Shown piece after piece: positions 1-12,102 of a stretch of DNA of 17,604 bases. A model generated the notes under the pieces. It did no database searches. It saw only the letters and a program-made list of their open reading frames with translations, and was not told the origin of the DNA. Numbering within the stretch: the stretch's first letter is position 1; the number at the start of each line of letters is the position of its first letter. The stretch comes from a virus. The stretch lies in UHGV virus genome UHGV-0097368; one strand, given 5' to 3'. Both the position numbers and the translations under genes were made by a program.

Positions 1-60
1 TGACAGGCAGACGATGATGCAGATAACCAGAGCGGAGATAATCGCGGTTACTCTGCTCAT
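1..60 (-). CDS. Rz: Rz spanin, 5' end only (gene continues beyond window start)
   Basis: Minus-strand ATG at 58-60 overlaps the R stop (ATGA). Translation [20 protein letters not shown] matches the N-terminus of lambda Rz as I recall it. Confidence 0.8.
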   Translation of the reverse strand, partial: MSRVTAIISALVICIIVCLS

Positions 61-533
61 ACCTCAATCTCTCTGACCGTTCCGCCAGCTTCTTTGAATT
101 TTGCAATCAGGTTGTCAGCCTTATGCTCGAACTGACCATAACCAGCGCCCGGCAGTGAAGCCCAGATATTGCTGCAACGGTCGATTGCCTGACGAATATC
201 ACCGCGATCAATCATCGGTAAAGCGCCACGCTCTTTAATCTGCTGCAATGCCACAGCGTCCTGACTTTTGGGGGAGAAATCTTTCAGGCCAAGCTGCTTA
301 CGATAGGAATCCCACCAACGGGAAAGAAGCTGGTAGCGCCCGGCTGCTGTTGATTTGAGTTTTGGGTTTAGCGTGACCAGTTTGCGAGGGTGATCGGAGT
401 AATCAGTGAATAGCTCTCCGCCAACAATGACGTCATAACCATGATTTCTGGTTTTCTGTCGTCCGTTATCAGTTCCCTCTGACCACGCCAGCATATCGAG
501 GAACGCCTTACGTTGATTATTGATTTCCACCAT
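57..533 (-). CDS. R: Endolysin (lytic transglycosylase), lambda R type
   Basis: 158 aa [38 protein letters not shown]..., essentially the lambda R protein; sits directly downstream of the holin gene. Confidence 0.95.
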
Positions 534-840
534 CTTCTACTCCGGCTTTTTTAGCAGCGAAGCGTTTGATAAGCGAACCAATCGAGTCAGTACCGATGTA
601 GCCGATGAACACGCTCGTTATATAAGCGAGATTGCTACTTAATCCGGCGAAGTCGAGAAGGTCACGAATGAACCAGGCGATAATGGCGCACATCGTTGCG
701 TCGATTACTGTTTTTGTAAACGCACCGCCATTATACCTGCCGCGAAGGTACGCCATTGCAAACGCAAGGATTGCCCCGATGCCTTGTTCCTTTGCCGCGA
801 GAATGGCGGCTAACAGGTCATGTTTTTCTGGCATCTTCAT
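517..840 (-). CDS. S: Holin/antiholin S (S107/S105 dual start)
   Basis: 107 aa ORF beginning [39 protein letters not shown]..., lambda S type; Met1-Lys2-Met3 dual-start motif is present. Confidence 0.95.
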
Positions 841-1130
841 GTCTTACCCCCAATAAGGGGATTTGCTCTATTTAATTAGGAATAAGGTCGATTACTGATA
901 GAACAAATCCAGGCTACTGTGTTTAGTAATCAGATTTGTTCGTGACCGATATGCACGGGCAAAACGGCATGAGGTTGTTAGCGCAGCCTCTTGCCACCCG
1001 CTTTCACGAAGCCAGCCATTGCGCTGGTTTTCTTTTATGCAAAGCACACCGCACCGTAGCCACAGCGGATAAGGTGATTATTTTTGTCTGTCTGGTATTT
1101 GGCTTGATGTGCTTTCAGAAAGGCCGTGCT

Positions 1131-1167
1131 TAAAACGCAAAAAGCCCCGAGCTATTAACTCAGGGCT
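1131..1167 (-). terminator. Intrinsic terminator in the late leader, about 30-60 nt downstream of the PR' start
   Basis: On the minus-strand RNA: AGCCCUGAG-UUAAU-AGCUCGGGGCU (9-bp stem with one G-U) followed by UUUUUGCGUUUU. Confidence 0.7.
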
Positions 1168-1202
1168 TTATTTAACGAGTGCATTTATCCATCGTTGAGT
1201 CA

Positions 1203-1231
1203 AATTTACCCAATTTTATTCAATAAGTCAA
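1203..1231 (-). promoter_or_regulatory. Late promoter PR' (with overlapping Q-utilisation region)
   Basis: Minus strand reads TTGACT-17 bp-TAAATT immediately downstream of Q; same hexamers and context as lambda PR'. Confidence 0.8.
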
Positions 1232-1273
1232 TATCATGCCGTTAATATGTTGCCATCCGTGGCAATCATGCTG

Positions 1274-1897
1274 CTAACGTGTGACCGCATTCAAAATGTT
1301 GTCTGCGATTGACTCTTCCTTGTGGCATTGCACCACCAGAGCGTCATACAGCGGCTTAACAGTGCGTGACCAGGTGGGTTGGGTAAGGTTTGGGATTAGC
1401 ATCGTTACAGCGCGATATGCTGCGCTTGCTGGCATCCTTGAATAGCCGACGCCTTTGCATCTTCCGCACTCTTTCTCAACAACTCTCCCCCACAGCTCTG
1501 TTTTGGCAATATCAACCGCACGGCCTGTACCGTGACAATCTCTGCATCTTGCGCCCGGCGTCGCGGCACTACGGCAATAATCCGCATAAGCGAATGTTGC
1601 GAGCACTTGCAGTACCTTTGCCTTAGTATTTCCTTCAAGCTTTGCCACACCACGGTATTTCCCCGATACCTTGTGTGCAAATTGCATCAGATAGTCGATA
1701 GCCTTTTGTTTGTCGTTCTGGCTGAGTTCATGCTTACCGCAGAATGCAGCCATTCCGAATCCGGCTTGTGATTGCGCCATCCCCATAGCAGCCATCACAT
1801 CAGTACCGGAAAGAGAGTCAGAAGCCGTGGCCCGTGGTGAGTCGCTCATCATCGGGCTTTTTGGCGAGTGAAATTTAGCTACGCTTTCGAGTCTCAT
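1274..1897 (-). CDS. Q: Late-gene antiterminator Q
   Basis: 207 aa [32 protein letters not shown]..., lambda Q type. Confidence 0.95.
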
Positions 1898-2558
1898 CGT
1901 CTTCTCCCTGTACCTGAATCAATGTGAGGTTTCCGCAGAACACTGCGCCGGTATCTATATACATCTGGTTGGCAAACTTGAGTGGTTTCACTGCTGGCGT
2001 ATGACCAAAGATGAACGTGTCCGCTCCTTTGATTTCTTTCACGATCCCGTCTTGTGAGTTGCTGATTCGTTCGCGGTTCCAGATTACCTGCTGATGATCA
2101 ACTGGCTTTCCAAACTCGTATTCGTCACAGGGATAATCGGCGTGGCAGATGACATATTTTTTACCTTCGCTCACCAGTTCGATGATTAACGGAAGTTCAT
2201 CTGCTTTATGGGCAAGAGCTTTAGCCAGAATTTCTTTGTCGTAATCGAGATTAAAGAACCAGCCACCGCCATTAAACAGCCAGTGATTGACGTTTCCACG
2301 CTCTGATAAGCCATCAATCATCATTTGCTCATGGTTTCCACGTACAGCTCGGAACCAGGGGAATGTGATTAATTCCAGACATTCGACGTTCTCTGTACCG
2401 CGATCGACCAAATCGCCAACCGAGATAAGCAGGTCTTTTTTGGTGTCGAATCCTATCGTCTCCAGTTTTTTCATCAGGTTCGTGTAGCATCCGTGCAGAT
2501 CGCCAACTACCCAAATATTTCGGTATTTGCTGCCATCAATTCTTTCGTAATAGCGCAT
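1875..2558 (-). CDS. ninI: Ser/Thr protein phosphatase NinI (lambda PPase)
   Basis: Starts [25 protein letters not shown]; GDLVDRG and GNHE metallophosphatase motifs; ATG at 2558 preceded by GGAG. The ORF-track N-terminal extension is probably not translated. Confidence 0.9.
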
Positions 2559-2742
2559 CTCTTTCACTCCATCCGCGATGAACCATGAGAACGTCGTTGA
2601 CGATGGCGTGCATTTTCCCGTCTTTATCATCAACGTATTTTCTTACCGTGCCGCGACTACATTTCAGTCTGCGTGCTACTTCTGTCTGGTTTCCGTATGC
2701 TTCAACGAGCATGTCTGGAATGGTTTTTACTGAGAACGTCAT
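2536..2742 (-). CDS. ninH: NinH
   Basis: 68 aa [36 protein letters not shown]..., lambda NinH type; ATGA overlap with the ninG stop. Confidence 0.9.
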
Positions 2743-3350
2743 GCGGCCTCACTTCTGCTATTTCGCAGGTCTTTGAGTTTCTGTTGGTACTCTGCCTTGA
2801 TCGCCTTGCACTCTTCGATAGTCCAGCGATGGCGGCTATGGTTTGATTCGATTTCGTCTACTGCTTCCTGCCCGATGCGGTTAATCAGTTCGACGCGATA
2901 CGGAACGAGATTTCCGCTTTTGTGCTGGTTGCACACCACGCATTGCTTGTGAATATTGCGTTCATCAAATCGGAGTTGAGGTGCCGCAGCAGTTGTCCGG
3001 TAATGTCCGGCATCCCACTGAGCAGACGTGAGCGTTCCGCACGAGATACATGGTAAGTCGCGGTCTCTTTCTCTGATGAAGGCGTTTACGGCTTGTTGGG
3101 CTTGTTTAATCCAGTAACTGCGGGGCTTTAAGGCGAGTTTTCGAATCTTAAGTTTATCTTTCTGTTTCTGCTCCTCTCGTCGTCGTTTCTTCTCTGCTGC
3201 CTTTTCCGCTTTTTCGCGTTCTTTGCTTCGTCGTTCGAGTGCTATCTTGGTTCCACACTCTGGAGAGCACCACCACTGATTGGCGAATGCAGGGTGAAAC
3301 CATTCCCGACATTCATCGTTTTTACATCGTCTTCGCGCTGGTTTAGCCAT
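2739..3350 (-). CDS. ninG: NinG (Rap) recombination endonuclease / Holliday-junction resolvase
   Basis: 203 aa [33 protein letters not shown]..., lambda NinG type with Cys clusters. Confidence 0.9.
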
Positions 3351-6266: not shown

Positions 6267-8147
6267 TTAATACTCCGTCACGTTTTCCTGTCGCCACGCC
6301 TCGTCATATTCCGATTTCGGCATATTGGCGATGTAGCTATAAGGCGATCCTGATTCAAGTTGCAGGAACTGGTGCGATTGCTCGTCAAGGAACAACGGGA
6401 CACCACCTTCCCAACCTTCGCCGTTACGTTGTTTTTCAAGCATCAAAACAGATGCCGGAGATGCCAGTAGCTGTTCGTCCTTCTCTGACATCTTTTCACC
6501 ACTCTGAACTCTCTGTAACGCTCTCTCGCGAGCCTTGTTACGCCAGATGATAAAAAGGTTGTCTGTCAGGTCTGTTATCGCTCCAGAGCCTTTTACGTCC
6601 ATTTTCCCGGTTGGTTTTTCTTCGCTATCTCCTTTTCTGGAGTGAGTAACGAGAATGACGTGGGAGTTTGTTTTGTTTTTGAAGTCACAAATCGAGTCAA
6701 CAAATGCTTTCTGCCCGTTATAGTCATCGTCACCTATGCCGCATTTCATCAGGCTGTCGATGATGAATAACTGGATGCCGTATCGGCGGCGAGCGTAGTC
6801 GAATATTTCGATCAGCCTGTCGGCTTTCGCCGTTCCAGTCAGGCCAAACACCCAAAGTCTTTCGTCATAAAATTTAAATGCAGAGTCAATTTCCAGCACT
6901 GGCGGCATCTTGCAGCACGTCGCCTGACGGGTAAGGCGCTTAAGGAGAATACCAGGCTTCAGCTCAAGTGACGCGATGCACGTCTTCACACCCTGACGCA
7001 TTGCCTCAAGTGCCATATGCCCGACAACCTCCGTTTTTCCGTGACCGTTCACACCATTGACCAGCGTCAACTCGGCCTCACGAAACTGGAATTTATCTGC
7101 CAGAGATTCCCACGGTGGATTAAACAGATACTGCTGCTTGCCGTAGAAAGCGTTGATAGTGTCCTGGTAAAACTCTCGCGCGCTGTAGAGTTCTTCAGGA
7201 TCAAAGTAGGATGCCGTGCCGATGTACTGCCAGATTTCATCCTCGGTAACACCGTTCATCAGGCATTCGTTGATGTCTTTGTACGGCAGAGTAACAAGAC
7301 GGCAACGATGTTCACCGAGTCGGCTTGCGATTTCCCCTGCGGCTTCACGACCAACATCATCAACGTCCATCGAGATGAATATTTCCTCAAACCTGTCGAG
7401 GTTGTGATACTCAAACTCAATCCACTGTTGCTTAGCGCCTTTCCCGCCACCAAACGGCACGGATAACGCCGAGATGCCGTATTGCGCATAGCTCATACAA
7501 TCAATTTCGCCTTCGCAAAGTACAACCGCCCTCACGCCAGCGTCCAGAGCCTGCCATCCGAACAGACAAGGTTCGCAATCACCTTCTGCCATAATGACTT
7601 TCTTCCCGTCCGGGCGCTCAGTGCTGATTCGCTTGACCTGCAACAACTCACCATCGCGTTTGTACGGAAGCACCAGTGCATCAAGTTCTCGTTCTCCATT
7701 CCACACCTTGCCGCTGACAACCTCGTAGCGCTTTACGACTTCTGGCGATATGCCACGCGATTGCAGGTACTCAAGATGGGATTCTGTTCTGGTAACGTAG
7801 CGGGCGATTTTCTTGCGATCAGGTCTGGAGAATTTTTTCTCACGTTTGGCATCGAAATGGTGATCGTCATCCTTGATACCGAGAAATGCTTTCGCTTCCT
7901 GCATAGCCTGATGCAGGTTAATTCCACGACATGCCATCCACAAATCAAGCATGTCACCGCCGTCTCCCTCAGCGAAATCAGCCCATTTTTTCTTGCCGCT
8001 AAGGTTGACCTTAAGGCTGTTTCCCTTGTCACCATTGACGTTACCGGCAACCCACTCATGCCCCTCTTTCTTGCCGTTTGGCAACAGGTGCGGAGCCACC
8101 CTGTCAACCTGCGCCCAAAGCAGGTCGCTAAGTTCACTTGGCGTCAT
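6267..8147 (-). CDS. Bifunctional DNA primase-helicase (Toprim primase plus DnaB/gp4-like RecA-fold helicase)
   Basis: 626 aa; Toprim-like VVLCEGEIDCMSYAQYG; Walker A GVNGHGKTEVV and Walker B LFIIDSL; N-terminal zinc-ribbon-like segment without the usual cysteines. Confidence 0.85.
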   Translation of the reverse strand: MTPSELSDLLWAQVDRVAPHLLPNGKKEGHEWVAGNVNGDKGNSLKVNLSGKKKWADFAEGDGGDMLDLWMACRGINLHQAMQEAKAFLGIKDDDHHFDAKREKKFSRPDRKKIARYVTRTESHLEYLQSRGISPEVVKRYEVVSGKVWNGERELDALVLPYKRDGELLQVKRISTERPDGKKVIMAEGDCEPCLFGWQALDAGVRAVVLCEGEIDCMSYAQYGISALSVPFGGGKGAKQQWIEFEYHNLDRFEEIFISMDVDDVGREAAGEIASRLGEHRCRLVTLPYKDINECLMNGVTEDEIWQYIGTASYFDPEELYSAREFYQDTINAFYGKQQYLFNPPWESLADKFQFREAELTLVNGVNGHGKTEVVGHMALEAMRQGVKTCIASLELKPGILLKRLTRQATCCKMPPVLEIDSAFKFYDERLWVFGLTGTAKADRLIEIFDYARRRYGIQLFIIDSLMKCGIGDDDYNGQKAFVDSICDFKNKTNSHVILVTHSRKGDSEEKPTGKMDVKGSGAITDLTDNLFIIWRNKARERALQRVQSGEKMSEKDEQLLASPASVLMLEKQRNGEGWEGGVPLFLDEQSHQFLQLESGSPYSYIANMPKSEYDEAWRQENVTEY

Positions 8148-9983: not shown

Positions 9984-10700
<717 letters not shown>

Positions 10701-10812
10701 TCGGCAAGGTGTTCTGGTCGGCGCATAGCTGATAACAATTGAGCAAGAATCTTCATCGAATTAGGGGAATTTTCACTCCCCTCAGAACATAACATAGTAA
10801 ATGGATTGAATT

Positions 10813-11652
10813 ATGAAGAATGGTTTTTATGCGACTTACCGCAGCAAAAATAAAGGGAAAGATAAGCGCTCAATAAACCTGTCTGTTTTCCTTAATTCTC
10901 TGCTGGCTGATAATCATCACCTGCAGGTTGGCTCCAATTATTTGTATATTCATAAAATCGATGGAAAAACTTTTCTCTTTACCAAAACAAATGACAAGAG
11001 TCTGGTTCAGAAGATAAATCGCTCTAAAGCTTCAGTTGAAGATATTAAGAACAGCCTCGCAGATGACGAATCATTGGGATTCCCATCTTTTTTGTTTGTT
11101 GAAGGCGACACCATTGGTTTTGCCAGAACTGTTTTCGGGCCGACCACATCCGATCTGACAGATTTTTTAATCGGGAAAGGAATGTCATTAAGCAGTGGAG
11201 AGCGCGTTCAGATAGAGCCACTGATGAGGGGAACCACCAAAGACGATGTTATGCATATGCATTTCATCGGCCGAACAACGGTGAAGGTAGAAGCCAAGCT
11301 ACCTGTATTTGGCGATATATTAAAGGTCTTAGGGGCAACAGATATTGAAGGGGAGCTTTTTGACTCATTGGATATAGTCATTAAGCCAAAATTTAAAAGG
11401 GATATAAAAAAGGTTGCCAAGGATATTATTTTTAACCCGTCACCTCAATTTTCAGACATTAGCCTGCGGGCAAAAGATGAGGCCGGAGATATTTTAACAG
11501 AACATTATCTATCAGAAAAAGGCCATCTCTCAGCGCCTCTGAACAAGGTCACCAATGCTGAGATAGCTGAAGAGATGGCATATTGCTACGCAAGAATGAA
11601 AAGTGATATACTGGAATGTTTTAAAAGGCAGGTGGGCAAAGTTAAGGATTAA
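10813..11652 (+). CDS. rexA: RexA (Rex exclusion system sensor component)
   Basis: 279 aa MKNGFYATYRSKNKGKDKRSINLSVFLNSLLADNHHLQ..., lambda RexA. Confidence 0.95.
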   Translation: MKNGFYATYRSKNKGKDKRSINLSVFLNSLLADNHHLQVGSNYLYIHKIDGKTFLFTKTNDKSLVQKINRSKASVEDIKNSLADDESLGFPSFLFVEGDTIGFARTVFGPTTSDLTDFLIGKGMSLSSGERVQIEPLMRGTTKDDVMHMHFIGRTTVKVEAKLPVFGDILKVLGATDIEGELFDSLDIVIKPKFKRDIKKVAKDIIFNPSPQFSDISLRAKDEAGDILTEHYLSEKGHLSAPLNKVTNAEIAEEMAYCYARMKSDILECFKRQVGKVKD

Positions 11653-11667
11653 TTATCAGGAGTAATT

Positions 11668-12102
11668 ATGCGGAACAGAATCATGCCTGGTGTTTACATA
11701 GTAATAATTCCTTACGTTATCGTAAGCATTTGCTATCTCCTTTTCCGCCACTACATTCCTGGTGTTTCTTTTTCAGCTCATAGAGATGGTCTTGGGGCGA
11801 CATTGTCATCATATGCAGGAACCATGATTGCAATCCTGATTGCTGCCTTGACGTTTCTAATCGGAAGCAGAACGCGCCGACTGGCCAAGATTAGAGAGTA
11901 TGGGTATATGACATCGGTAGTTATTGTCTATGCCCTTAGTTTTGTTGAGCTTGGAGCTTTGTTTTTCTGCGGGTTATTGCTTCTTTCCAGCATAAGCGGC
12001 TACATGATACCCACTATCGCCATCGGCATTGCCTCTGCATCGTTCATTCATATATGCATCCTTGTTTTCCAACTATATAATTTGACCAGAGAACAAGAAT
12101 AA
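11668..12102 (+). CDS. rexB: RexB (Rex exclusion system membrane component)
   Basis: 144 aa hydrophobic MRNRIMPGVYIVIIPYVIVSICYLLFRHY..., lambda RexB. Confidence 0.95.
   Translation: MRNRIMPGVYIVIIPYVIVSICYLLFRHYIPGVSFSAHRDGLGATLSSYAGTMIAILIAALTFLIGSRTRRLAKIREYGYMTSVVIVYALSFVELGALFFCGLLLLSSISGYMIPTIAIGIASASFIHICILVFQLYNLTREQE

Follow-up and report, generated by a model that had tools for sequence, protein, structure and literature searches.

The question raised by this locus is how late transcription can be governed by a lambda-type Q protein when the late promoter PR' is followed almost at once by a strong terminator. The original prediction placed such a terminator about 30-60 nt after the PR' start and proposed that the body of the lambda 6S RNA had been replaced by a much shorter leader. 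The DNA that we analysed, referred to here as the window, is a stretch of 17,604 nucleotides of the virus genome UHGV-0097368. It belongs to a mosaic lambdoid phage or prophage, of which lambda covers 49% at 98.3% identity and any one phage record 60% at most. Away from the late region, ORFs of 237, 279 and 144 aa at 9987-12102 match cI, RexA and RexB in size, and the replication module includes a 626-aa protein (6267-8147) that resembles an mEp043 protein recorded as similar to ES18 gp61. The features of the late region are as follows, in the order in which the late operon would be read.

1274-1897, minus strand: gene Q, late-gene antiterminator of lambda type, 207 aa (ORF, protein comparison and Pfam)
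1203-1231, minus strand: promoter PR', with the -35 hexamer TTGACT at 1231-1226, a 17-bp spacer and the -10 hexamer TAAATT at 1208-1203 (pattern scan and lambda alignment)
1205-1225, minus strand: qut, the Q-binding element TATTGAATAAAATTGGGTAAA, an exact lambda match lying between -35 and -10
1191-1196, minus strand: putative start A1196 and the -10-like sigma-dependent pause element AACGAT, +1 to +6 (homology)
1170-1196, minus strand: initial transcribed region from +1 to +27, where the cassette is most conserved (diversity)
1012-1173, minus strand: 162-bp cassette without lambda homology, in place of 405 bp of lambda, 44610-45014 (blastn boundaries)
1139-1169, minus strand: intrinsic terminator tR', a 13-bp stem AAAGCCCUGAGUU / AGCUCGGGGCUUU with a 3-nt loop, followed by a U-run (scan and fold)
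1008-1031, plus strand: terminator-like hairpin antisense to the late operon (terminator scan and fold)
961-995, minus strand: second hairpin GGCAAGAGG / CCUCAUGCC with an A.A mismatch, then GUUUUG (fold)
517-840, minus strand: holin gene S, the first late gene, 107 aa (ORF and Pfam)
57-533, minus strand: endolysin gene R, 158 aa (ORF)

Genes Q, S and R all lie on the minus strand and all three are intact. The Q protein is identical to lambda Q at 206 of 207 positions (99%) and to P22 gp23 at 200 of 207 (97%), and is a member of the Pfam family Antiterm (PF03589; E = 1.7e-57, 191.9 bits against a cut-off of 26.7). The S protein belongs to the lambda holin family Phage_holin_3_1 (E = 2.4e-30), and the colinear counterpart of R is annotated in mEp043 and lambda as lysozyme or R. 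From the Q stop codon, ending at 1274, to the S ATG at 840 there are 433 bp, one fewer than the 434 bp given originally, and the interval is short as claimed: its lambda equivalent (44509 to 45186) measures 676 bp, in keeping with the figure of roughly 680 bp given originally, so that the window's interval is 243 bp shorter.

A pattern scan of positions 1-3000 returned TTGACT-17-TAAATT as the sole promoter-like site. The match to the consensus is by itself not significant, as one site was found where 3.4 were expected in shuffled sequences. The PR' assignment nevertheless stands, because from -35 through +8, with the Q-binding site that lies between the two hexamers, every base is that of lambda PR', which bears out the lambda-type hexamers of the original prediction. 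The equivalent of 1203-1231 is recorded in mEp043 and HK140 as a promoter 'similar to coliphage lambda PR'' and in the P22 record BK000583 (37852-37880) as 'P late or P R'', and the qut string is the one that mEp043 and mEp213 give as the lambda Qut site. At two positions, -28 and -18, the window's Q-binding site is not that of P22, HK022 and Emek; both versions of the site are common among P22-type leaders, the diversity at these two positions being ~0.4.

We placed the putative start at A1196, 7 nt past the -10 hexamer, by homology to the P22 annotation, in which the RNA 5' nucleotide (37887) is the first A of AACGATGG. In its initial transcribed sequence the window differs from lambda at five positions from +9 onwards (+9, +11, +15, +17 and +24), with GGAUAAAUGCA at +7 to +17 in the window as against GGGUUAAUUCG in lambda, and as the two sequences part from +9 on, the exact pause site could differ from that of lambda. 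The hexamer AACGAT is invariant in lambda, P22, HK022 and Emek, and we take it to be the pause element, a role that comes from established work on lambda.

The hairpin at 1169-1141, with 13 pairs and followed by TTTTTGCGTTTTA, is the top terminator-like site in positions 1-3000. Counted from A1196, its stem occupies +28 to +56 and its U-run +54 to +58, which agrees with the distance of 30-60 nt originally proposed; the U-run is only 5 nt long and GCG comes next. An intrinsic terminator, hairpin plus U-run, is present between the pause site and S, the first late gene, and the predicted terminated PR' RNA is ~58 nt long. Folding gives -23.3 kcal/mol for the first 66 nt of the RNA (z = -4.6), a value reached by none of 200 shuffled sequences, and -18.6 kcal/mol for the hairpin by itself. 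Its variants carry loop changes or single mismatches, with too little variation in the stem for compensatory changes to be seen. At the level of sequence and predicted fold, we consider the presence of a strong terminator ~30-60 nt past the start of the late promoter confirmed. The plus strand at 1135-1175 can fold as well (-13.5 kcal/mol, z = -3.4), with TTTATTTAA coming next; tR' may act as a bidirectional terminator, clearly weaker in the plus direction.

How the short leader came to stand next to a lambda promoter becomes apparent in the alignment to lambda. With a short word size, blastn aligned window 1300-1174 to lambda 44483-44609 at 96.9% identity, reaching through +23, and homology returned at window 1011-517, aligned to lambda 45015-45509 at 98.2% identity. 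Between these blocks, window 1173-1012 showed no detectable homology to lambda 44610-45014 at word size 7, and the interval is accordingly not identical to that of lambda. The 405 bp that are replaced comprise the 6S RNA body, tR' and the spacer that follows. Lambda has its +1 at 44587 and the end of its tR' U-tract at 44779, giving a 6S RNA of 193-194 nt; no homologue of its body (lambda 44610-44779) was found in window 1173-1012 by blastn at word size 7. As the 162-bp insert is non-homologous to the 405 bp of lambda, the event is a replacement of a module and not a deletion, and the difference between window and lambda is, as judged from the alignment boundaries, a mosaic swap of a 405-bp cassette for a 162-bp one. 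The proposal that a much shorter leader took the place of the 6S body is upheld by these boundaries, and the structural claims of the original prediction are, on alignment and folding, all supported.

The incoming leader is a familiar one. Over +1 to +66 the window and P22 differ only in the hairpin loop. By blastn the whole interval is colinear with P22, and overall identity to P22 is 83%. The P22 record BK000583, an inferential third-party annotation that describes qut and the RNA 5' nucleotide as 'similar to phage lambda', carries four features here: P late/PR', the qut site, the RNA 5' nucleotide and t late/tR'. The last of these, at 37917-37945, is described as 't late or t R'; antiterminated by gene 23 protein action to allow full late transcription', and with +1 at 37887 it covers +31 to +59, matching the position of tR' in the window. 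The same hairpin is annotated in Emek as a 'rho-independent terminator', and the Q-to-S interval is 96-98% identical to those of HK544, HK140, HK022, the mEp phages, Sf101 and others. By sequence, the window's leader is a standard late leader and tR' of P22/HK022 type, known, widespread and already annotated; we regard its shortness as ordinary because such a leader is standard in P22, HK022 and many relatives and is annotated in public records.

The distribution of the cassette can be read directly from sequence collections, as can its anatomy, fold and homology. The interval has matches in 177-184 phage records, of which at least 81 carry most or all of the leader. Of 5,426 complete E. coli genomes, 436 were matched by a query of promoter plus leader, in 327 cases with 80% or more of the query length covered, and the lambda 6S body was found in 416 of the same 5,426, so that the P22-type leader, present in ~6-8% of complete E. 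coli genomes, is as common as the lambda 6S type. Among IMG/VR contigs sharing the exact -10 region, 56 have P22-type leaders, 44 have lambda-type leaders and a few have other types; in 40 of the P22-type leaders, the window's own included, the stem runs from +28/29 to +55/57. Across 44 unique P22-type sequences the diversity is 0.005 at +1 to +27 and ~0.03 in PR', in the terminator, where the variation is mostly in the loop, and in the 3' end of Q. Similarity breaks off right after the U-run in several contigs, which suggests that Q, PR', qut and tR' move as a unit.

Other arrangements were seen among the IMG/VR contigs. An unrelated terminator at +39 to +65 stands behind the same lambda-type -10 in two of them (L110 and L114), the same tR' hairpin stands behind a different +1 to +25 in another (L106), and a lambda-like start is joined to a different terminator at +162 to +193 in a further one (L067). 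In four contigs (L007, L091, L030 and L099) no terminator was found by a simple finder that also misses lambda tR', with its long interrupted stem, and which was for this reason not used for leader lengths across types. A scan of genome contigs with the 15-mer TTGGGTAAATTTGAC gave 120 matches, of which 3 were real PR' sites; nearly all were chance matches in unrelated bacteria, a 15-mer being too short for the collection.

Further structures lie between tR' and S. A second, weaker hairpin had been predicted around 945-985; it exists and is weak, but its arms GGCAAGAGG...CCTCATGCC are at 995-966 and its T-run at 964-961. It falls within the block shared with lambda, in which the stem is a perfect 9 bp, whereas in the window the fifth pair is the A.A mismatch. 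Among 56 sequences this fifth pair is G-C, A.C, G.A, U.C or A.A, and no compensatory pairs occur. Its fold scores z = -1.96 and is matched by 10 of 200 shuffles, the best fold of the region places the U-run inside an outer helix, and the terminator scan of 1-3000 does not list the hairpin. In our view it is at best a weak secondary signal that leaders of lambda type and of P22 type share. For lambda, tandem terminators located downstream of tR' were reportedly described in the 1980s. The plus-strand hairpin at 1008-1031, GAAGCCAGCCATTGCGCTGGTTTT followed by CTTTTATGCA (-12.0 kcal/mol, z = -2.8), sits at the point (1011) from which homology to lambda is seen again, and 35 P22-type IMG/VR leaders have it. 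Just upstream of S are two strong conserved stem-loops shared with lambda, at 901-941 and ~843-880 on the minus strand, comprising GAACAAAUC...GAUUUGUUC and a structure around the S start; these are presumably the known lambda structures for late-leader processing and S translation control. Two ORFs in this region were considered and rejected. The 51-aa ORF at 892-1047 (minus strand), hypothetical protein HK140_065 in HK140, spans the junction of lambda and non-lambda sequence and was rejected as a gene, and the 65-aa plus-strand ORF at 936-1133, which has a hydrophobic end, was rejected as a small peptide as its frame is broken by a 1-nt indel in HK022.

The locus is very probably best explained as the P22/HK022-type version of the late control cassette of the Q-lambda family ('type 1'), operating by Q-dependent readthrough. 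From what is known of lambda and P22 we infer its start site, pause, termination and readthrough, and propose the following sequence of events. PR' would fire constitutively, and in the absence of Q the polymerase would pause near +16/17, resume and terminate at the U-run, releasing an RNA of ~58 nt as compared to the 193-194-nt 6S RNA of lambda. Once accumulated, Q would bind its site between the -35 and -10 hexamers and, together with NusA, engage the paused polymerase and narrow its RNA exit channel such that the tR' hairpin could not form; with Q loaded at the sigma-dependent pause, the polymerase would read through into S and R. It has been reported that Q-lambda loads at a sigma-dependent pause lying close to the promoter and that Q-lambda and NusA form a nozzle on the RNA exit channel that blocks formation of the terminator hairpin (PMC9388147).

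Would so short a distance disturb this mechanism? The 5' arm of tR' would be transcribed only from +28, that is, past the loading of Q near +16/17. As the arm would be made after Q has loaded, and as viable phages use this design, the short distance should pose no mechanistic problem, and a terminator ~40 nt past the pause site is, on this analysis, an established and viable design. A lambda-type Q would then work with a terminator ~40 nt beyond its loading site, the compact Q-PR'-qut-tR' would be a module that moves between phages, and the short leader could serve as a convenient natural minimal template for studies of Q.

Other explanations of the short interval and its hairpin have been weighed against antiterminated late control. 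It is hardly credible that the interval is what a deletion left of the lambda leader in a decaying prophage whose late control is now defective. The missing 243 bp and the mosaic window, at most 60% of which is covered by its best phage record, would be in keeping with such a history, but the 162-bp insert without homology to the 405 bp of lambda speaks for replacement, the plaque-forming phages P22, HK022, HK140 and the mEp phages carry the same leader, and Q, S and R are undamaged; we therefore reject the notion of a decayed lambda leader. Slightly less improbable, and still very much so, is that the hairpin serves mainly as a bidirectional terminator or insulator that, together with the hairpin at 1008-1031, keeps antisense transcription from entering Q and the early region. 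Upstream of the stem stands AAA and downstream of it TTTTT, the stem folds on the plus strand too, and a second plus-strand terminator-like site is found ~110 bp away. Yet the minus-strand hairpin is far more stable (-18.6 kcal/mol alone and -23.3 kcal/mol in context, as against -13.5 kcal/mol), a difference due to G.U pairs; no promoter-like site was found by the pattern scan on the plus strand of 1-3000, upstream of the 1008-1031 hairpin included; and the position directly past PR' and qut is that of P22 tR'.

We also considered a role for the terminated RNA itself. In Shiga-toxin phages the terminated PR' transcript gives rise to a small RNA, StxS, a precedent showing that such by-products can gain Hfq-dependent functions, and lambda PR' is constitutive (PMC7547250). 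As in the window's leader, a constitutive late promoter is there terminated just downstream in lysogens, leaving a short RNA by-product; StxS differs, however, in its sequence and Q family, and it binds Hfq and reaches its 74 nt by processing of a longer RNA. That the ~58-nt leader is in addition an StxS-like trans-acting regulatory RNA in lysogens strikes us as unlikely. Its fold, a 5' stem, an A/U-rich single-stranded stretch and the terminator hairpin with its U-tail, is compatible with such a role, and the cassette varies least at +1 to +27, but this conservation is equally explained by constraints of pausing and Q loading on the DNA and by recent common ancestry, and the U-run is only 5 nt before GCG. 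Rfam gave no match to the leader at gathering scores, the hits with E of 10 or less being terminator-shaped noise of 15-21 bits against cut-offs of 39-90. A full-text search of the literature for the hairpin and leader sequences returned no paper containing them or describing such a small-RNA role, nor did we find a study of a function of its own for the short leader RNA in lysogens. Somewhat more doubtful still is that the leader is a functional trans-acting RNA and that the near-invariant +1 to +27 is kept partly for this reason; if it were so, a small RNA would be made constitutively in every lysogen with the cassette, that is, in ~6-8% of complete E. coli genomes and in P22-like Salmonella prophages.

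Late control by a Q protein that carries polymerase past a promoter-proximal terminator is shared by phages that differ in its parts, and the Q-dependent readthrough that we favour for the window can be set beside them. The source that describes StxS also mentions short antitermination-regulated late RNAs of P22, 21, phi80 and 82, in a passage that cites Roberts et al. 1976 (PMC7547250). The late cassettes of phages 21 and 82 follow the same logic, with a Q gene, a promoter, a sigma-dependent pause and a terminator (PMC9388147), whereas their Q proteins are related neither in sequence nor in structure to the window's lambda-type Q and use different binding sites. Lambda is like the window in Q, PR', the Q-binding site and the pause hexamer; unlike the window, its leader is 193-194 nt instead of ~58 nt, and its 6S body and tR' hairpin have no counterpart in the window, the homology ending at +23 and resuming 175 bp upstream of S. 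HK022, HK140, HK544, mEp043, mEp213 and Sf101 show only point differences from the window's interval, HK022, for example, carrying T in place of G in the 3' arm of its stem and an indel of 1 nt in its spacer, and in the records of this HK/mEp group the promoter and Qut site are annotated and the terminator mostly is not. Two of them, mEp043 and mEp213, join a lambda-exact Qut site to the short leader, the very combination found in the window. The window's plan is also that of the late control region of P22 (BK000583), in which gene 23, P late/PR', qut and t late/tR' follow one another in the same order and at the same distances as in the window. The two differ in the hairpin loop, TTAATAG in the window and TTTAACCG in P22, in the Q-binding site and spacer, which are two positions off in P22 and lambda-exact in the window, and in what lies downstream, namely the lysis genes 13 and 19 in P22 and lambda S and R in the window. 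The lambda and P22 Q proteins 'can substitute for one another' (PMC8022706).
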